A stretch of DNA of 64,000 nt, from contig NC_083294.1 of the NCBI RefSeq assembly GCF_963506605.1, positions 12,090,001 through 12,154,000 on the forward strand. The letters run 5' to 3'. Within the stretch, counting starts at the first letter, position 1, and each line of letters starts with the position of its first letter. The stretch comes from Zootoca vivipara. Lineage: Eukaryota. This document shows, piece by piece, positions 40,332 through 51,189 of the stretch. The notes under the pieces are model-generated. The model was not told the DNA's origin. It searched no databases and saw nothing but the letters and a program-made list of their open reading frames with translations. The position numbers and the translations under genes are program-made.

Positions 40332-43300
40332 AGACCTTTAAGATATACCCTTGTTGTGAGTTTGAAAACTTCCCTCTTCCTCTGGCATGGACTGACAGCA
40401 AGTAAGAAGGCAGGTAGGTTGGGGGTTGGCTGAGGGCATGGTGAGATTGGTGGGGGCAGTGCTCCATATGTCCAATGGACCAGCCACTACTAACCCTCCA
40501 AGGAAGCTGATCAATGGGCACACTCAGTCCTAACTGGGAAGTATTGGGGGGCAGGGAGCTTCCTCAATTTAGGATTTCTGCTCCCCTCCCCAAATATTTT
40601 TGTATTTCTGCAAACAATGGGGTTCCTCCGAACTTGCTTGGGGATACAGCTTCTGCTTTCTTGTGTCTGGGTGTTGTCATGTGGCTATAAAAGGATTGGC
40701 ACTTGACTCTGAACTTTGGAAATAAAGGAAATGTGAGCACTGAAATGCTTATCAACTCTTATGGTCTGTTATGAGCCATTAAAAAAAAAAGGCCTGGCAG
40801 CTTTTATAGGATAATCTCAGAGAAAGGTGCTATTTTGTCTACAAAGTGATCAATAAACATTGGCCACTCCAGTGAGGTGGGACAAAGTAGGCTAAAGGCA
40901 AAGTTTTAAAGAGGGAGAAAAATGAAGAGCTCCCTGCTGAGTTTCCACGTTTGCTAGTGTATATATATTCGATCACTTTAAAGGCAATAGTTCTTCAGCT
41001 GCATGCACACTTTTGCTCTCAGACAAACACAGATCCCACATCTAACACCAGTGCTACACGCCACTCCCATCTCCATGAGCTGTAAGAGATTCCTGGGGCT
41101 CCAGGTGTTTAGCCAAGGTTGTGTCTCCATTGGGAAGATCGAGGCACAGCAGAGGCTAGTATCTTTAATAAATATGGCTGATTAACACATATTTACACCT
41201 AGATATCTGCCATGGAGGGGTTGCTGAACATTATACCCCAGGAGTGTCTCTCATCATTGTCCCTCTCATATCTTCAGCAAACTTGGGTCCAAAACAGCAG
41301 CCAGTCATGGCTCCTGGCCTCCAGCCAGTGCCAAAGTGGTTCTGACCTCTACACACACACCCCATATAAAGTTCTGGCCTCCCCAGAAGCTCATGGAGAA
41401 CTAGCCTTTGCTCTCCTTCCCAGCACACCTCCTGCCAAAACCCCAAGCCTCCTGTGAAATTACACTTTTCCCTTTCACCTCACCGCCCCCTCCCTGTCAC
41501 TCCTGTTTTGCACAGACCTGAGAACCTTATTTGATGTATAGTACCTGGCCACTGTTTCATAATGGTTTGCATTCAACCAGCCAGGCCAGACTGGTTTGCA
41601 TAAGCTGGCCCATGGATTCCTTTTCTGACACAGTTCTGTAGCCTGCATTTCCCATTGGGTTTGGGGGAGGGGGGGTCTCCCCCTGACCAAACTCTTAACA
41701 ATATTCACCTAACCATCTTATTGGGAAGCGCTGTAGCTTAGCAGAAGAGCACCACCATTTTGCATGTAGGAAGTCCCAGGTTCAGTCCTTGGAACCTCAG
41801 GTAGGGCTGGGAGACACCTCTGCCTGAAACTCTGGATTGCTGCTACCGGTCAGTACTCGGGCTAGAGCAGGTATCCTGTGTTCCTGGAAAGCGCCATAGC
41901 TCAGTGGTAGAGCATCTGCTTTGCATGCGGAAGGTGCCAGGTTCTCCAATGGCATCTCCTAGTAGAGTTGAGAGACCCTTCTAAGTGAGGCTCTGGAGAG
42001 CTTCTGCTGGTCAGAGTAGACAGGGCAAGCTATATAAACCCTATCTTCATTCTTGAGATGTTTAGACTCGCCTTTACTTCATGCTTTGCTGTATGCGCAA
42101 AAGTTGGCAAAAGTTCTCAGATTCCTGGCACTTTCTAGAATTGCACGAAACATAAAATGGTTCGTTCCCCACTCCCTCTCCCCAAAAAAGTTACAGGTAT
42201 TATAGAACCAAGGAGAAAAAGTCTTGAAAAGGAGCAAATACTTACCACCCTTTCCACGTACAAATGGGGTACACTCCACTCCCCCATGAAAAGGTTCCCT
42301 TGTTTCAATTCAAGTTGTTCACTGCTCTGTCAACTTGGCACCACCAACTTCCCTGCAGACACCTCTCATCTGCATACAGGTAGACAGTTATCACAGGTAT
42401 GCAACTAACAGAAGATCTCCTCCCTCCAAGGCACAGTTTTCCCCAGGTCCTAAAGCTAGTACCTCTTAGTTTTGGGCGTAACACATAATGAGTGCATACA
42501 GACCAGGGCTTAATTCATTTGTACAGGTTCTGCAGAGAAGTCACACCTGGCTTGATCTCATCCCAGCAACATCAGAAGCTGCCTTACAGTACTTCAGGCA
42601 TATTGGTCCATCTAGGTCCACACTGATTAGCAGAGATTCTCCTAGGTTTTGAGCAGGAATCTCTCTTATCCTGAACTGGAGATGCTGAGGATTTAACCTA
42701 GGACCTTTTCAAATGTGAGACATGTACTCTGCTACTAAGATACATGCAACTGAACACACTACAGCTAAGTCCTACATGCAATCTATTATGCACTATGTGT
42801 GTCCCCCACTACTGTGCTCCTGTGCAAATTTTTTAAATGTGTTATAAACAAAAAATAAGGGCATGAAACATTTCCCAGCATGACAACAAAGCCTCCTGCA
42901 TATACAATATATGATGCTGCCATTTAGAAAACAGGAACCAGCAATCCTAATGGCAAATTCCTGCTGTCTGTGGATTGAGAGAGGCACTCTGGACATGCTC
43001 AAAAACCTCCCTCCACCTATTGTAACTAGCAGGTATGGATAGACAAACAAACCTATCAATTTTTGTTTCTCATTCTCTCCCTTTCCATTTTAAGTCTCCC
43101 TTTCCACATTGGTTTGTGATTTATTTATTTTTACGTCCTCCTGAAAATTCAGCAGCTTTTTGATGTAAATTATTGCTAATATAAACAGTTTGCTATGCAA
43201 TTTTGCCTGATATACACATTTTTGCAAAGCAATTTTCCCTTCATCTTTGTATCTTGTTTCCATTAATATAGACATCTTTATGCACACTTCAAGCCAATAT

Positions 43301-45800: not shown

Positions 45801-46521
45801 GATACTGGAATGCCCATAGGTTAGGGTAGAACAGGGTGGGTTGGTGGGTGGGTGGAACTGAGGGAAGATGGTGGGAGGGGCTTAGCTGCAGGGTGCAGCC
45901 TCCCCCAGTTGACCTTGGGGAAGAGACCTATTGGGGATGGGGAGGACAAACACTGCATTTACAGCATGCATAACATCCCCCCACCATTGTTATGGCTGCT
46001 GGGAATTACGGTAGTAGCTCTGTGAGGAAATAAACTGGAATTACCAGGATCCTTTGGAGATGTGTGTTTTAAATGTATGGCATGTACACATGTAGATTCT
46101 CTTCTACCATAATAAGGATGATGGCAATAATAATGATTGTTTAATTATTTGTATCCCTTATCTGAGTTGCCTATCTTTGTCACCCAGCTCAAGCATGATA
46201 CCTCCTGTGTTATCTTATTTCTACACCCTGTTTGCTCATCCTCCCTGACTTCCTCTTTTTGGTCTGCTGCTAGACCAGAGCAACAGAGATTTTTCTCCAC
46301 AATAGCACACTTCGTTTGGTATTTCTTCCAAGGCTGCTATTATTTTTGCTTTTTCTGCTTTTTCCTTGCCCATTTGGGGAAACCCCAGACCAGAAGGTTT
46401 GCTGGAAGGCAAACAGCATCTCTGGGTGCAGAGGGAGTGGGAACAACTGGGCAAACAGCTCTGTGCCCTCCATCTCCATCTCCATCTCTCTCTGGGAGGG
46501 AAAGGCACACCTTGAGCCACC

Positions 46522-49500
46522 CTGGATCCCCGCATCAAAGAGCCGCTCCTCTGCAGGGAGCCTGGGGAAGATTATCAAACCTTCAAGGCGAAAGATGCTC
46601 AGCTGGCGGAGAAAGAATATTACAGGTAAAGTTTCTGCCTCTGCTAATTTCATCTCCCTTTTCCCCTTTCTTATGCCTAAAGGTACACCTTTCTTGCTTA
46701 CAACTCTTCCCCCTTAAATCCCACTTTCCTGGAATACTTTTGGCTTAAGCTGCTAGTCCTCATCCCGCACCAGATCCACACCATACTTTTAAAGCATATC
46801 TAACACATGTTTAAAGCACATGGGCTCACCCTCCCCCAAAGAATCCTGGGTACTGTAGTTTGTAAGGGTGTTGGGAATTGTGGCTCTGTGGAGGGAAAAC
46901 TATAGGTCCCAGGATTCTTGGTGGCCAGGGAGCTGACAGTTCCTGTACAAAACATCATGTACTTTGATAATGTGTTGTTTGTGTTGCTGTGATCCAGGAG
47001 TGGGAGAAAACATTTTCAGCCCGAGGCAAGGCATTCACTTCTGGCAAGGGTTACATGCCAGCGATAGCCAGATTTGCCAGTGGGCATAGCTGCCAAGTTT
47101 TCCCTTTTCTCGCGAGGAAGCCTATTCAGCACAAGGGAATTTCCCTTAAAAAAAGGGAGAACTTGGCAGCTATGCCAGTGGGCAAAGTAACACATGTAAA
47201 GCAAGAAGCCTGATAATATTGCAGATATTAATATTAGTTACAGGTAGGTAGCCGTGTTGGTCTGAGTCGAAGCAAAAATAAAAAAATTCCTTCAGTAGCA
47301 CCTTAAAGACCAACTAAGTTTTTATTTTGGTATGAGCTTTCGTGTGCAGTGTGCAGTGTGCATGCACACGAAAGCTCATACCAAAATAAAAACTTAGTTG
47401 GTCTTTAAGGTGCTACTGAAGGAATTTTTTTAGATATTAATATTGTGCAGTTGGAAGCAATTGGATGCATTAAAGCTAACTCCTCTTGGAATAAAACACT
47501 GTCCAGTCCCATAAGTATTGTTCAAAGCTTTACTAACCAAATCTTCTTTCAAAACAGGTACAAAAACATTAATGATACATCCAAAATAATTCCTTAGTCA
47601 TGTGCATGTTCCAGCACAGGTTTGGCTTCTTATAAAATATGAAACCAAGGGTCTGTCTCTCCCACAACCTCCATTACATTACAGCCTGGGGCTGTTTTCT
47701 CTTTATCAGAGACCTCATTACCACATCCTTTGTTATTGGCTGCTTAAGAACAATGTCTCAACTCACACAAAACAGAGACCCGCAGATTAAAGTATGCATA
47801 AAAGGTCATTCTATTCTATCTCTTTCATGTGATTTAAGTCAGTCACATGATAAATCAGAAGACATCAACAGTTAATTATCAACCTGCTAGAGAGCTCCTG
47901 TTGCTCTTCTTTAGTTTCAGTGGAAATTTCCAGTTCAACCCTTAGTAATATACATACAGGCATTCACAATTTCAGTGTCAATTAAACAAGTAACCTATAC
48001 TTAACACATAAGAGTTCAAGGACACATTTCAGCCAAGAAAAAGCACTAAAAGAGGTTGTGGCTTAGGAGGGGTGCGTGGCCTGGAGAATGTTCAGGGGGC
48101 CATACAGAGAAACTTGGAGGGTTGGATTCAGCCTGCATGGAGGGCAGGTCCATGGAGTTTAGGACGATAAGATGGGGCTGCAAAAGAGGAAAGCTCCATT
48201 CAACGATAGAACCAGTACCTGGCAACCCTGGGCAAGTTGCCAGGAGCCTGTGGTTGGTTGCAATATCATCAAGTAAATGATGTATTCTCAAAGGATAAAA
48301 AATAGGCTTTGAAGACAAAAGGTCTAAATTTCAAATAGAATTGTTGGAAGGTAGAATTAAATTGTTGTCAAAAATGTATGATTTGCTGTTAGAATGGTAT
48401 ACAAAGGATGAATTGACAAAAGATGTGATGATAAAATGGGCAAAATACTTTGGGCATAATATCGAATATGATGCGTGGTTGAAATTATGGAATCAAACAT
48501 TGAAGTTCACGGCATGTACCGCCCTGGAAGATGATGTATAGATGGTATTTAACACCAGCAAAGTTAGCTAAAATGTATAGGATGAGTAATAAAATGTGCT
48601 GGAAATGTAATGAGAAGGAGGGAGAGTTTTATCATATGTGGTGGAAGTGCGAAAAAGTTAAAAGATTTTGGTAATTGGTATATAATGAACTGAAAAAGAT
48701 TTTTAAGTATACCTTTCCCAAAAAACCTGAGGTTTTTGGGAAAGGTATACTTAGGACTTATTGGACAAGAGATTGCAAAGGAAGACTATATATATATACC
48801 GTGTTTCTCATATTTTAAGGCATCCCCAAAAAATAAGCCATGACAGGATTTCTAAGGGTTGGTGAAAAATAAGACATACCCCGAAAATAAGCCATGTCGT
48901 GTAGCCCTGACCGAGCGAGAGGCGAAGGCGCGGGACCCAGCAGGAGCTCCCTGCCTGCTTCCCCGAGCCGTCGCGCATCGGGGGACAGAGCCGAAGATCG
49001 GCGGGCGCTCCTTGCTGGGCTTGACAAGCCCGGCAAACAGCGCCCGCCGATCTTCGGACCTGTCCTGTGTGACAGGCGGGGGTGGGGGGGGAAGCGGAGA
49101 TCGTTCTCCGCTCTCCCCCCACCCCCGCCTGTCACCAAAGATCGGCGGGCGCTGCTTGCTGGGCTTGACAAGCCCGGCAAACAGCGCCCGCCGATCTTCG
49201 GACCTGTCCTGTGTGACAGGCGGGGGTGGGGGGGGAAGCGGAGATCGTTCTCCGCTCTCCCCCCACCCCCGCCTGTCACCAAAGATCGGCGGGCGCTGTT
49301 TGCTGGGCTTGACAAGCCCGGCAAACAGCGCCCGCCGATCTTCGGCCCTGTCCTGTGTGACAGGCGGGGGTGGGGGGGGAAGCGGAGATCGTTCTCCGCT
49401 CTCCCCCCACCCCCGCCTGTCACCAAAGATCGGCGGGCGCTGTTTGCTGGGCTTGACAAGCCCGGCAAACAGCGCCCGCCGATCTTCGGACCTGTCCTGT

Positions 49501-51124
49501 GTGACAGGCGGGGGTGGGGGGGGAAGCGGAGATCGTTCTCCGCTCTCCCCCCACCCCCGCCTGTCACCAAAGATCGGCGGGCGCTGTTTGCTGGGCTTGA
49601 CAAGCCCGGCAAACAGCGCCCGCCGATCTTCGGACCTGTCCTGTGTGACAGGCGGGGGTGGGGGGGGAAGCGGAGATCGTTCTCCGCTCTCCCCCCACCC
49701 CCTCCTGTCACCAAAGATCGGCGGGCGCTCCTTGCTGGGCTTGACAAGCCCGGCAAACAGCGCCCGCCGATCTTCGGACCTGTCCTGTGTGGCAGGCGGG
49801 GGTGGGGGAGAAGCGGAGATCGTGCTCCGCTCTCCCCCCATCCCCGCCTGTCACCGAAGATCGGCGGGCGCTCCTAGCTGGGCTTGACAAGCCCGGCAAA
49901 CAGCGCCCGCCGACCTGTGCTGTGTGACAGGCGGGGGTGGGGGAGAAGCGGAGATCGTTCTCCGCTCTCCGCCCACCCCCGCCTGTCACCGAAGATCGGC
50001 GGGCGCTCCTAGCTGGGCTTGACAAGTCCGGCAAACAGCGCCCGCCAACCTGTGCTGTGTGACAGGCGGGGGTGGGGGGGAAGCGGAGATCGTTCTCCGC
50101 TCTCCGCCCACCCCCGCCTGTCACCGAAGATCGGCGGGCGCTGTTTGCTGGGCTTGACAAGCCCGGCAAACAGCGCCCGCCGATCTTCGGACCTGTCCTG
50201 TGTGACAGGCGGGGGTGGGGGGGGAAGCGGAGATCGTTCTCCGCTCTCCCCCCACCCCCGCCTGTCACCAAAGATCGGCGGGCGCTCCTTGCTGGGCTTG
50301 ACAAGCCCGGCAAACAGCGCCCGCCGATCTTCGGACCTGTCCTGTGTGACAGGCGGGGGTGGGGGGGAAGCGGAGATCGTTCTCCGCTCTCCCCCCACCC
50401 CCGCCTGTCACCAAAGATCGGCGGGCGCTCCTTGCTGGGCTTGACAAGCCCGGCAAACAGCGCCCGCCGATCTTCGGACCTGTCCTGTGTGACAGGCGGG
50501 GGTGGGGGGGAAGCGGAGATCGTGCTCCGCTCTCCCCCCACCCCCGCCTGTCACCAAAGATCGGCGGGCGCTGTTTGCTGGGCTTGACAAGCCCGGCAAA
50601 CAGCGCCCGCCGATCTTCGGCCCTGTGCTGTGTGACAGGCGGGGGTGGGGGGGAAGTGGAGATCGTTCTCCGCTCTTCCCCCATCCCCGCCTGTCACCGA
50701 AGATCGGCGGTCGCTCCTAGCTGGGCTTGACAAGCCCGGCAAACAGCGCCCGCCGACCTGTGCTGTGTGACAGGCGGGGGTGGGGGAGAAGCGGAGATCG
50801 TTCTCCGCTCTCCCCCCATCCCCGCCTGTCACCGAAGATCGGCGGGCGCTCCTAGCTGGGCTTGACAAGCCCGGCAAACAGCGCCCGCCGACCTGTGCTG
50901 TGTGACAGGCGGGGGTGGGGGGAAGCGGAGATCGTTCTCCGCTCTCCGCCCACCCCCGCCTGTCACCGAAGATCGGCGGGCGCTGTTTGCTGGGCTTGAC
51001 AAGCCCGGCAAACAGCGCCCGCGTGCACTTTATTAAAAAATAAGACATCCCTCAAAAATAAGCCATGTCGTGTTTTTTTGAAGAAAAAATTAATATAAGA
51101 CATGACTTATAATATGAGAAACAC

Positions 51125-51189
<65 letters not shown>

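Follow-up and report, generated by a model that had tools for sequence, protein, structure and literature searches.

The stretch of DNA considered here (64,000 nucleotides of the Zootoca vivipara genome, referred to below as the window) carries the first six coding exons of SLC2A6, the gene for the sugar transporter GLUT6, and the codon found at its start position is a CTG at 46522. Judging from the sequence, we consider it likely that this CTG is the working start codon of an intact GLUT6 in this lizard. The region 46513-46551 on the forward strand reads TGA GCC ACC CTG GAT CCC CGC ATC AAA GAG CCG CTC CTC, and an earlier note on this DNA had described it as GCCACC-CTG-G with an in-frame stop three codons upstream, which can be read directly at 46513-46525. 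Translation from the CTG continues through DYQTF and EKEYYR up to a GT donor after 46625. The pattern GCCRCCNTGG occurs a single time when both strands of the 64 kb are scanned, and that occurrence is the site at 46522, where the start context is CACC-CTG-GAT (-4 C, -3 A, +4 G). This matches the optimum predicted for non-AUG starts, (C/A)(A/G)(C/A)(A/C/G)CUGGAU, in PMC9082881. The features of the start region are as follows.

46356..46521, + strand: probable 5' leader, contiguous with exon 1 (unspliced contigs X20 and X11, RNA by guess; ATG gap)
46513..46515, + strand: in-frame TGA three codons 5' of the CTG (sequence), which stops any in-frame ATG delivered by acceptors further upstream
46516..46521, + strand: Kozak element GCCACC (-4 C, -3 A), in the sole GCCRCCNTGG of the window
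46522..46524, + strand: CTG, predicted initiation codon; ATG in some haplotypes (contigs from sequencing runs; Met in XP_034969507.1)
46525..46527, + strand: GAT at +4 to +6, completing CACC-CUG-GAU, equal to the most efficient predicted context (PMC9082881)
46522..46625, + strand: SLC2A6 coding exon 1, 34 codons plus 2 nt, with the EPLL dileucine motif at 46540-46551
46595..46597, + strand: out-of-frame ATG (A at -3, C at +4) opening a 35-codon reading frame that ends at 51964-51966; a catching role would follow from PMC3105428 and PMC5714202

A CTG in place of the SLC2A6 start codon

The forward strand is free of ATG from 46198 to 46594, and the interval between the ATGs at 46195 and 46595 is among the 5 of 1062 such gaps in the window that extend over at least 400 nt. 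In the spliced SLC2A6 sequence the ATG at 46595 is the only one ahead of Met104; it is out of frame and its open reading frame (ORF) terminates in exon 2, as the earlier note had said. The first in-frame ATG is codon 104, at position 57725. That note had correctly placed it in exon 3, but the loss it foresaw, of the dileucine motif and the first transmembrane span, was too small, and by the usual GLUT topology a protein begun there would lack the dileucine, the first span and most of the second.

The gene is an intact SLC2A6/GLUT6 orthologue, and its region is single-copy in the genome assembly (G000). Exons 46522-46625, 51890-52052, 57683-57889, 59460-59559 and 61598-61809 join into 262 open codons which agree with RefSeq XP_034969507.1 at 261/262 residues, the sole difference being L versus M at residue 1; the CTG frame splices into exon 2, as had been claimed. 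The claim that the other exons are intact holds as well, a tblastn search with the 513-residue model P0032 having given ten exon matches across residues 1-513 without stops, six in the window and four in L002. When exon 3 was used as the query, the best match was 100% to Zootoca vivipara SLC2A6, and among the 31 matches most of the named ones are SLC2A6, the others being hypothetical or MFS proteins. The Pfam domain PF00083 (Sugar_tr) covers residues 46-501 of P0032 with an E value of 1e-80, and the N-terminal dileucine EPLL occupies residues 7-10. In its sequence, Sugar_tr domain, N-terminal dileucine and ten coding exons the gene resembles SLC2A6/GLUT6, a class III sugar transporter, as described in PMC6929180 and PMC9456207. 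Two RefSeq models exist for Zootoca vivipara, XP_034969507.1 with a Met start and XP_060126545.1 without exon 1. GLUT6 is reported to be held inside the cell by its dileucine (PMC6929180), so the CUG form would be the one with normal sorting. An N-terminal extension produced by leaky scanning, of the MYC or PTEN kind, was considered and rejected, given that the Sugar_tr domain starts at residue 46 and the first in-frame AUG, codon 104, already lies within it. The remaining exons are as follows.

51890..52052, + strand: SLC2A6 exon 2
57683..57889, + strand: SLC2A6 exon 3, with Met104 at 57725
59460..59559, + strand: SLC2A6 exon 4, with a GC donor at 59560-59561; frame agrees with the RefSeq model
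61598..61809, + strand: SLC2A6 exon 5
63502..63654, + strand: SLC2A6 exon 6; exons 7-10 lie beyond the window in L002 and are open

The start position was looked for in contigs or reads from 8 of 24 sequencing runs; no run in which the locus was recognised is on record as RNA. Runs X1-X4, in which 33/33 sampled words were present and which may include the source of the assembly, lie outside these 8. Contigs were mostly of depth 2.6-6.5, and at such depths rare alleles get dropped. Three of the runs carry the same species label (organism A: X5 from study P2, X7 from study P3 and X11 from study P4), and X13, X17 and X20 come from relatives (organisms B, F and G, respectively). X5 and X11 show no change at 46522. 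X7 (depth 30) has C>A there, and X13 (depth 6.5, with 38 other differences over ~890 letters) also has A, so that in both this very codon becomes ATG; X7 and XP_034969507.1 possibly derive from one animal and may therefore count once as evidence for the ATG. Among the differences listed for X17 and X20 there is no C>A at 46522. The C at 46522 is real, and so is the A allele. An A at this position, which the earlier note had named as telling against its claim, was thus seen in a sample of the same species and in a relative; it represents a second allele, and the claim is not overturned by it. A contig from X20 (RNA by guess) spans 46356-46625 whole and unspliced and ends at the exon-1 donor, and one from X11 (likewise RNA by guess) covers 46300-46533 with no splice between leader and CTG. 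No raw RNA read fell on 46300-46700 in the ~6 in 100 of each of runs X23 and X24 that was searched. The leader also contains a CTCCAT repeat at 46468-46485, from which X7 has lost one unit (a 6-nt deletion at 46468); X5 probably lacks it too, a dip in depth at that point being consistent with the same deletion, and the deletion may be a background common to the ATG and CTG alleles.

Conservation and history of the codon

Across the family, the start position was aligned by anchoring on the dileucine motif. Met occupies it in 97/101 non-squamate rows, birds and turtles among them; the exceptions are two opossum rows whose head is shorter, one partial row and one low-quality bird row. It is in this respect that the lizard gene departs from the non-squamate SLC2A6 orthologues examined. 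Squamates with Met are represented by four gecko models, Hemicordylus, Varanus and two Anolis. Leu stands at the position in 20 models from 19 other species belonging to five lineages (Podarcis muralis, Rhineura, Elgaria, the agamids Pogona and Phrynocephalus, and 14 snakes). In all 20 of these the residue at -1 is Thr, Asn or Lys and that at +2 is Asp or Glu, which means A at -3 and G at +4 irrespective of the codons used. Several models fall short of the codon and were left out of these counts: Lacerta agilis, Podarcis lilfordi, Salvator, Sceloporus, Phrynosoma, Naja, Gekko japonicus, Protobothrops and Laticauda, fragment isoforms, and the newer models of Zootoca, Podarcis muralis and Pogona. 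Nine species beyond those counted have no model reaching the codon, and several of their models have unrelated leaders or begin at the Met104 equivalent. Searching for shorter proteins yielded no additional squamate start, and a DNA pattern scan of metagenome contigs gave no match.

Identity between lineages is 0.14 over codons -22 to -3, 0.67 over codons -2 to +2, 0.35 over residues 3-7 and 0.62 over residues 8-21. These are means of 22 pairs drawn from 8 rows, 4 of them snakes, with Pantherophis (short upstream part) and Notechis (deletion) excluded, and they measure constraint at the protein level, as identity rather than Ka/Ks. The peak includes two codons 5' of the Leu and stands above the coding residues that follow, which is as predicted for a selected initiation context; these two codons are non-coding in the Met-bearing species. 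Two skink models (P0007 and P0008) have Arg at the old start and a new in-frame Met five codons upstream, and this gain may have released the old start, as would be expected of a former start codon. The N-termini proposed by annotation pipelines conflict for lacertids and others, again as expected when an ATG is absent, and the missing ATG can account for squamate GLUT6 database models that range from ~410 to 694 residues with unrelated N-termini, several of them without the sorting motif. A CUG start of this kind is likely to be overlooked by gene-annotation pipelines. In this lizard we find together the sequence features associated with a sole non-AUG start, namely a conserved near-cognate codon, a strong context, no upstream in-frame AUG, an out-of-frame AUG and coding constraint; six snake models and the two skink models do have an upstream in-frame AUG. 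The ATG at 46595 stems from an Asp-Ala codon pair which is missing in most snake models.

A quick protein tree built without the N-terminus requires 5 changes among Met, Leu and Arg, compared with a shuffled mean of 12.4. Episquamata comprises the lacertoids, snakes, anguimorphs and iguanians, and parsimony on a species tree takes 5 steps with Leu at the root of this group, or 7 if returns to Met are forbidden. The returns in the 5-step solution fall in Varanus, Anolis and an allele of this species, and organism B adds another ATG. Met and Leu can be exchanged in a single step only where the Leu codon is CTG or TTG, and the repeated exchanges therefore suggest a Leu codon that has remained near-cognate. 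Whether the ATG was lost once and regained several times, or was lost repeatedly and always to Leu, either history points to a codon selected as a start. We think it fairly likely that the CUG start is of old, clade-wide origin near the base of Episquamata. Given that Leu is shared across lineages and that C is read in organisms F and G, CTG is, on present comparisons, the older state in lacertids.

Alternative explanations

One alternative, that the C is a base-call or assembly error for an ATG, could appeal to the A or Met found in X7, X13 and XP_034969507.1. It is contradicted by two other studies of the same species (X5 and X11) and by two relatives (X17 and X20), none with C>A, as well as by Leu in 19 other species, and we regard this possibility, which the earlier note had entertained, as negligible. 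That note had also allowed for a recent start-loss allele. Such a null or near-null allele would resemble the human FNDC5 ATA and would be tolerated since loss of GLUT6 would have little effect; the title of one cited work speaks of minimal effects of GLUT6 knockout in mice, the FNDC5 ATA is given as yielding 1% of the protein (PMC3770677), and both ATG and CTG are present within this species. However, Leu is common to Podarcis, the amphisbaenian Rhineura, the anguid Elgaria, agamids and 14 snake species, a spread wider than a single recent lineage; organisms F and G also read C, and the gene and exon 1 are still conserved and open. A recent start loss is for these reasons improbable, and of the options the earlier note had offered genuine non-AUG initiation is the best supported.

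Two further alternatives would supply a Met from elsewhere. An upstream exon could bring an ATG and be spliced into exon 1 past the TGA, leaving the CTG as an ordinary Leu codon or skipping it. Lacertid models with such joins exist (XP_028571611.1 joins between TGAG and CC, Lacerta agilis at EPLL and Podarcis lilfordi past the dileucine), a join to a CAG at 46557 would bring into frame an ATG at 42995-43032 that has a good donor, and a pyrimidine tract with GAG at 46499 lies approximately at the join point of the snake models considered below. Against this, the in-frame TGA means that acceptors 5' of 46513 cannot deliver an in-frame ATG, and the sole AG between TGA and CTG (acceptor 46517) has 32% pyrimidines and a G at -3, where five real SLC2A6 acceptors have 68-100% pyrimidines. 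The 42995-43032 exon, a homologue of an old Podarcis patch, has one extra base here; of the 6 joins tried, 5 leave it out of frame and the sixth (46557) loses the dileucine. The lacertid patches also differ from one another and from the newer Podarcis model, and the X11 and X20 contigs cross the site unspliced. The earlier note had held that an upstream exon supplying an ATG after the TGA would speak against its claim; an upstream ATG exon is present in six snake models, but in this lizard the route is blocked by the in-frame TGA. Slightly less probable still is a protein made from the first exon that XP_060126545.1 and XP_077778454.1 place in intron 1, or from Met104, with exon 1 dispensable in animals carrying CTG. 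Both current RefSeq lacertid models draw on the same intron-1 stretch, which is single-copy in the assembly, and the current Pogona, Phrynosoma and Naja models begin at the Met104 equivalent. Yet the Zootoca and Podarcis models read that stretch in different frames, and the donor of the intron-1 exon (48273) sits within an insertion of 3.45 kb that has a 15-nt duplication at its ends (48236 and 51690). Forms started in intron 1 or at Met104 would lack the dileucine that retains GLUT6 intracellularly (PMC6929180), and exon 1 is conserved in the Leu-bearing lineages (0.62 versus 0.14 upstream). Both the upstream-exon and the intron-1 routes are, then, unlikely as the main route in this lizard.

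Several observations nevertheless weigh against a CUG start here or against its extension to other squamates. Outside the lacertids the comparison covers residues and not codons, so that any of the six leucine codons may be present there; for the two agamid models and Elgaria, the residue at -1 may derive from a spliced patch. Six snake models (three Crotalus, Pituophis, Ahaetulla and Erythrolamprus) start at a common upstream MD(L/F)(S/L)P(A/V)SR, and the joins of three Crotalus tigris isoforms lie just ahead of GQPTPSATL, at the same point as the snake leader, so that in these models and isoforms the Leu may be internal or a second start. The backbone of the gene tree is open and fits several origins equally well, with 4 Leu/Met changes, 2 of them forced by starred branches of the quick tree. 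The C reads are single contigs of low depth (2.6-5.6), C>T in X17 or X20 is possible, and X11 and X20 are taken as RNA by guess. Finally, a stable stem-loop downstream of the CTG, of the POLGARF kind, was sought at 46525-46585 and not found there, this segment folding at -16.9 kcal/mol (z -0.57) and 50/200 shuffles folding as well. As regards the snakes, advanced forms probably have a real upstream exon with an ATG: P0015, P0021, P0022, P0042, P0046 and P0053 share a 16-residue upstream Met-leader that is apparently a new upstream exon. Snakes and skinks would each have gained a new start for this gene independently. Homologues of the snake upstream exon and of other models' leaders were looked for in window positions 1-52000, and none was recognisable apart from a stretch at 42996, which weakly matches the old Podarcis patch, and 9 residues at 51730 that resemble the Phrynocephalus leader. 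The latter, at 51730-51759, is an intron-1 frame MAVLATNFD resembling the Phrynocephalus leader MAVLTTKFN (score 29/44, next best 20); it is single-copy in the assembly and is possibly due to chance.

Proposed initiation, known systems and other elements

If the CTG serves as the start codon, scanning ribosomes would cross the ATG-free leader and a fraction of them would load initiator Met-tRNA on the CUG, aided by CACC-CUG-GAU, to give a product with the dileucine sorting motif and all membrane spans. When out-of-frame AUGs follow a non-AUG start, that start can become the sole one of the main ORF (PMC3105428, PMC5714202), a principle that fits the ATG at 46595. Ribosomes passing the CUG would mostly meet this AUG and stop in exon 2, so that little of the crippled Met104 form would be made. 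The CUG allele may be expected to yield less protein than the ATG allele; this lower expression, which the earlier note had also proposed, and any regulation, we infer. CUG starts are described as going up with eIF5 and down with 5MP (PMC5714202). The change from ATG to Leu probably occurred once near the base of Episquamata, with the codon near-cognate since and ATG regained in Varanus, Anolis, a lacertid relative and one allele here. As a speculation that may well prove wrong, a single AUG-to-CUG switch in the ancestor of most lizards and all snakes could have confined the codon to CUG or AUG ever since, with lineages and alleles flipping between the two as an inherited two-position control of transporter dose, responsive to start-codon stringency (eIF1/eIF5/5MP) in inflammation, and with snakes and skinks escaping through new upstream ATGs.

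A near-cognate codon is described as the sole or principal start of the main ORF in EIF4G2/DAP5 (GUG), R3HCC1 and GTF3A (CUG) and TEAD1 (PMC9082881, PMC3105428, PMC5714202). With these the lizard gene has in common a near-cognate codon in a strong context, an in-frame upstream stop, an out-of-frame AUG before the in-frame AUG and conserved coding sequence after it. Unlike in that group as these sources present it, the ATG is here ancestral and kept by outgroups, and the change is squamate-only, reverts in several lineages and leaves both alleles in one species; the lizard site, a predicted start, also has neither a downstream hairpin nor a GCCGCC extension. Human FNDC5, with its ATG-to-ATA change, is similar in having a lineage-specific near-cognate codon for a conserved ATG and a next in-frame ATG that drops a targeting signal (PMC3105428, PMC3770677). 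As described there, however, the FNDC5 change is recent, affects one species and leaves a weak codon with 1% of the product, whereas the GLUT6 CUG lies in the best predicted context and its Leu is found in five squamate lineages. Ivanov et al. 2011 (PMC3105428) describe classes in which non-AUG starts in mammals are replaced by AUG in non-mammals or some mammals, so that AUG and non-AUG alternate at a homologous position as they do here. Theirs are human-centred N-terminal extensions, while the present case concerns the canonical N-terminus of a 12-span reptile transporter and is polymorphic within a species.

We found no report of a non-AUG start in SLC2A6, or of squamate or lizard SLC2A6, in a literature search that left subscription journals largely outside and did not cover supplementary catalogues. 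Few vertebrate genes are known to make their main protein solely from a non-AUG codon, and these have been catalogued from human-centred screens. The present case appears to be specific to reptiles. Its gain can be assigned to a branch of a tree and its reversals counted, and a single species carries both AUG and CUG alleles, which makes it testable whether a CUG start is a selected control of dose or a tolerated weak allele.

GLUT6 is described as lysosomal in macrophages and as an NF-kB target, mammalian GLUT6 being a RelA target (PMC6929180, PMC9456207). An NF-kB-like site, GGGAAACCCC, lies at 46377-46386, ~140 nt 5' of the CTG; there are 7 such matches on the forward strand of the window, and chance is possible. 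Organisms B and G have C>T at 46383 within it, with the consensus kept. The whole locus lies in G000:C19. We take SLC2A6 to fall within the block shared by chicken chromosome 17 and human chromosome 9. Lacertid Z chromosomes are reported to carry genes of this chicken 17/human 9 origin (PMC6534595), and the ATG/CTG polymorphism may be Z-linked.

The introns contain further elements.

48172..48272, + strand: intron-1 stretch used as the first exon of XP_060126545.1, to which the window is an exact match; probably an annotation patch

The ~3.45 kb insertion in intron 1 extends over 48236-51704, with the 15-nt direct duplication at its ends (48236 and 51690) and, by eye, broken LINE-like coding remnants; the Podarcis model reads through the empty site of this insertion. 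We found no support for regarding the intron-1 'first exon' and 51706-51800 as common repeats, each having one match in the assembly. Nested in the insertion, at 48800-51125, is an element with inverted ends (48800 and 51111), TA-run flanks and a GC-rich tandem array (period 144, 14.4 copies, 95% matches), which looks like a non-autonomous DNA transposon. Intron 2 holds, at 55560-56190, a CR1-like reverse-transcriptase remnant recognised by eye from its translation.

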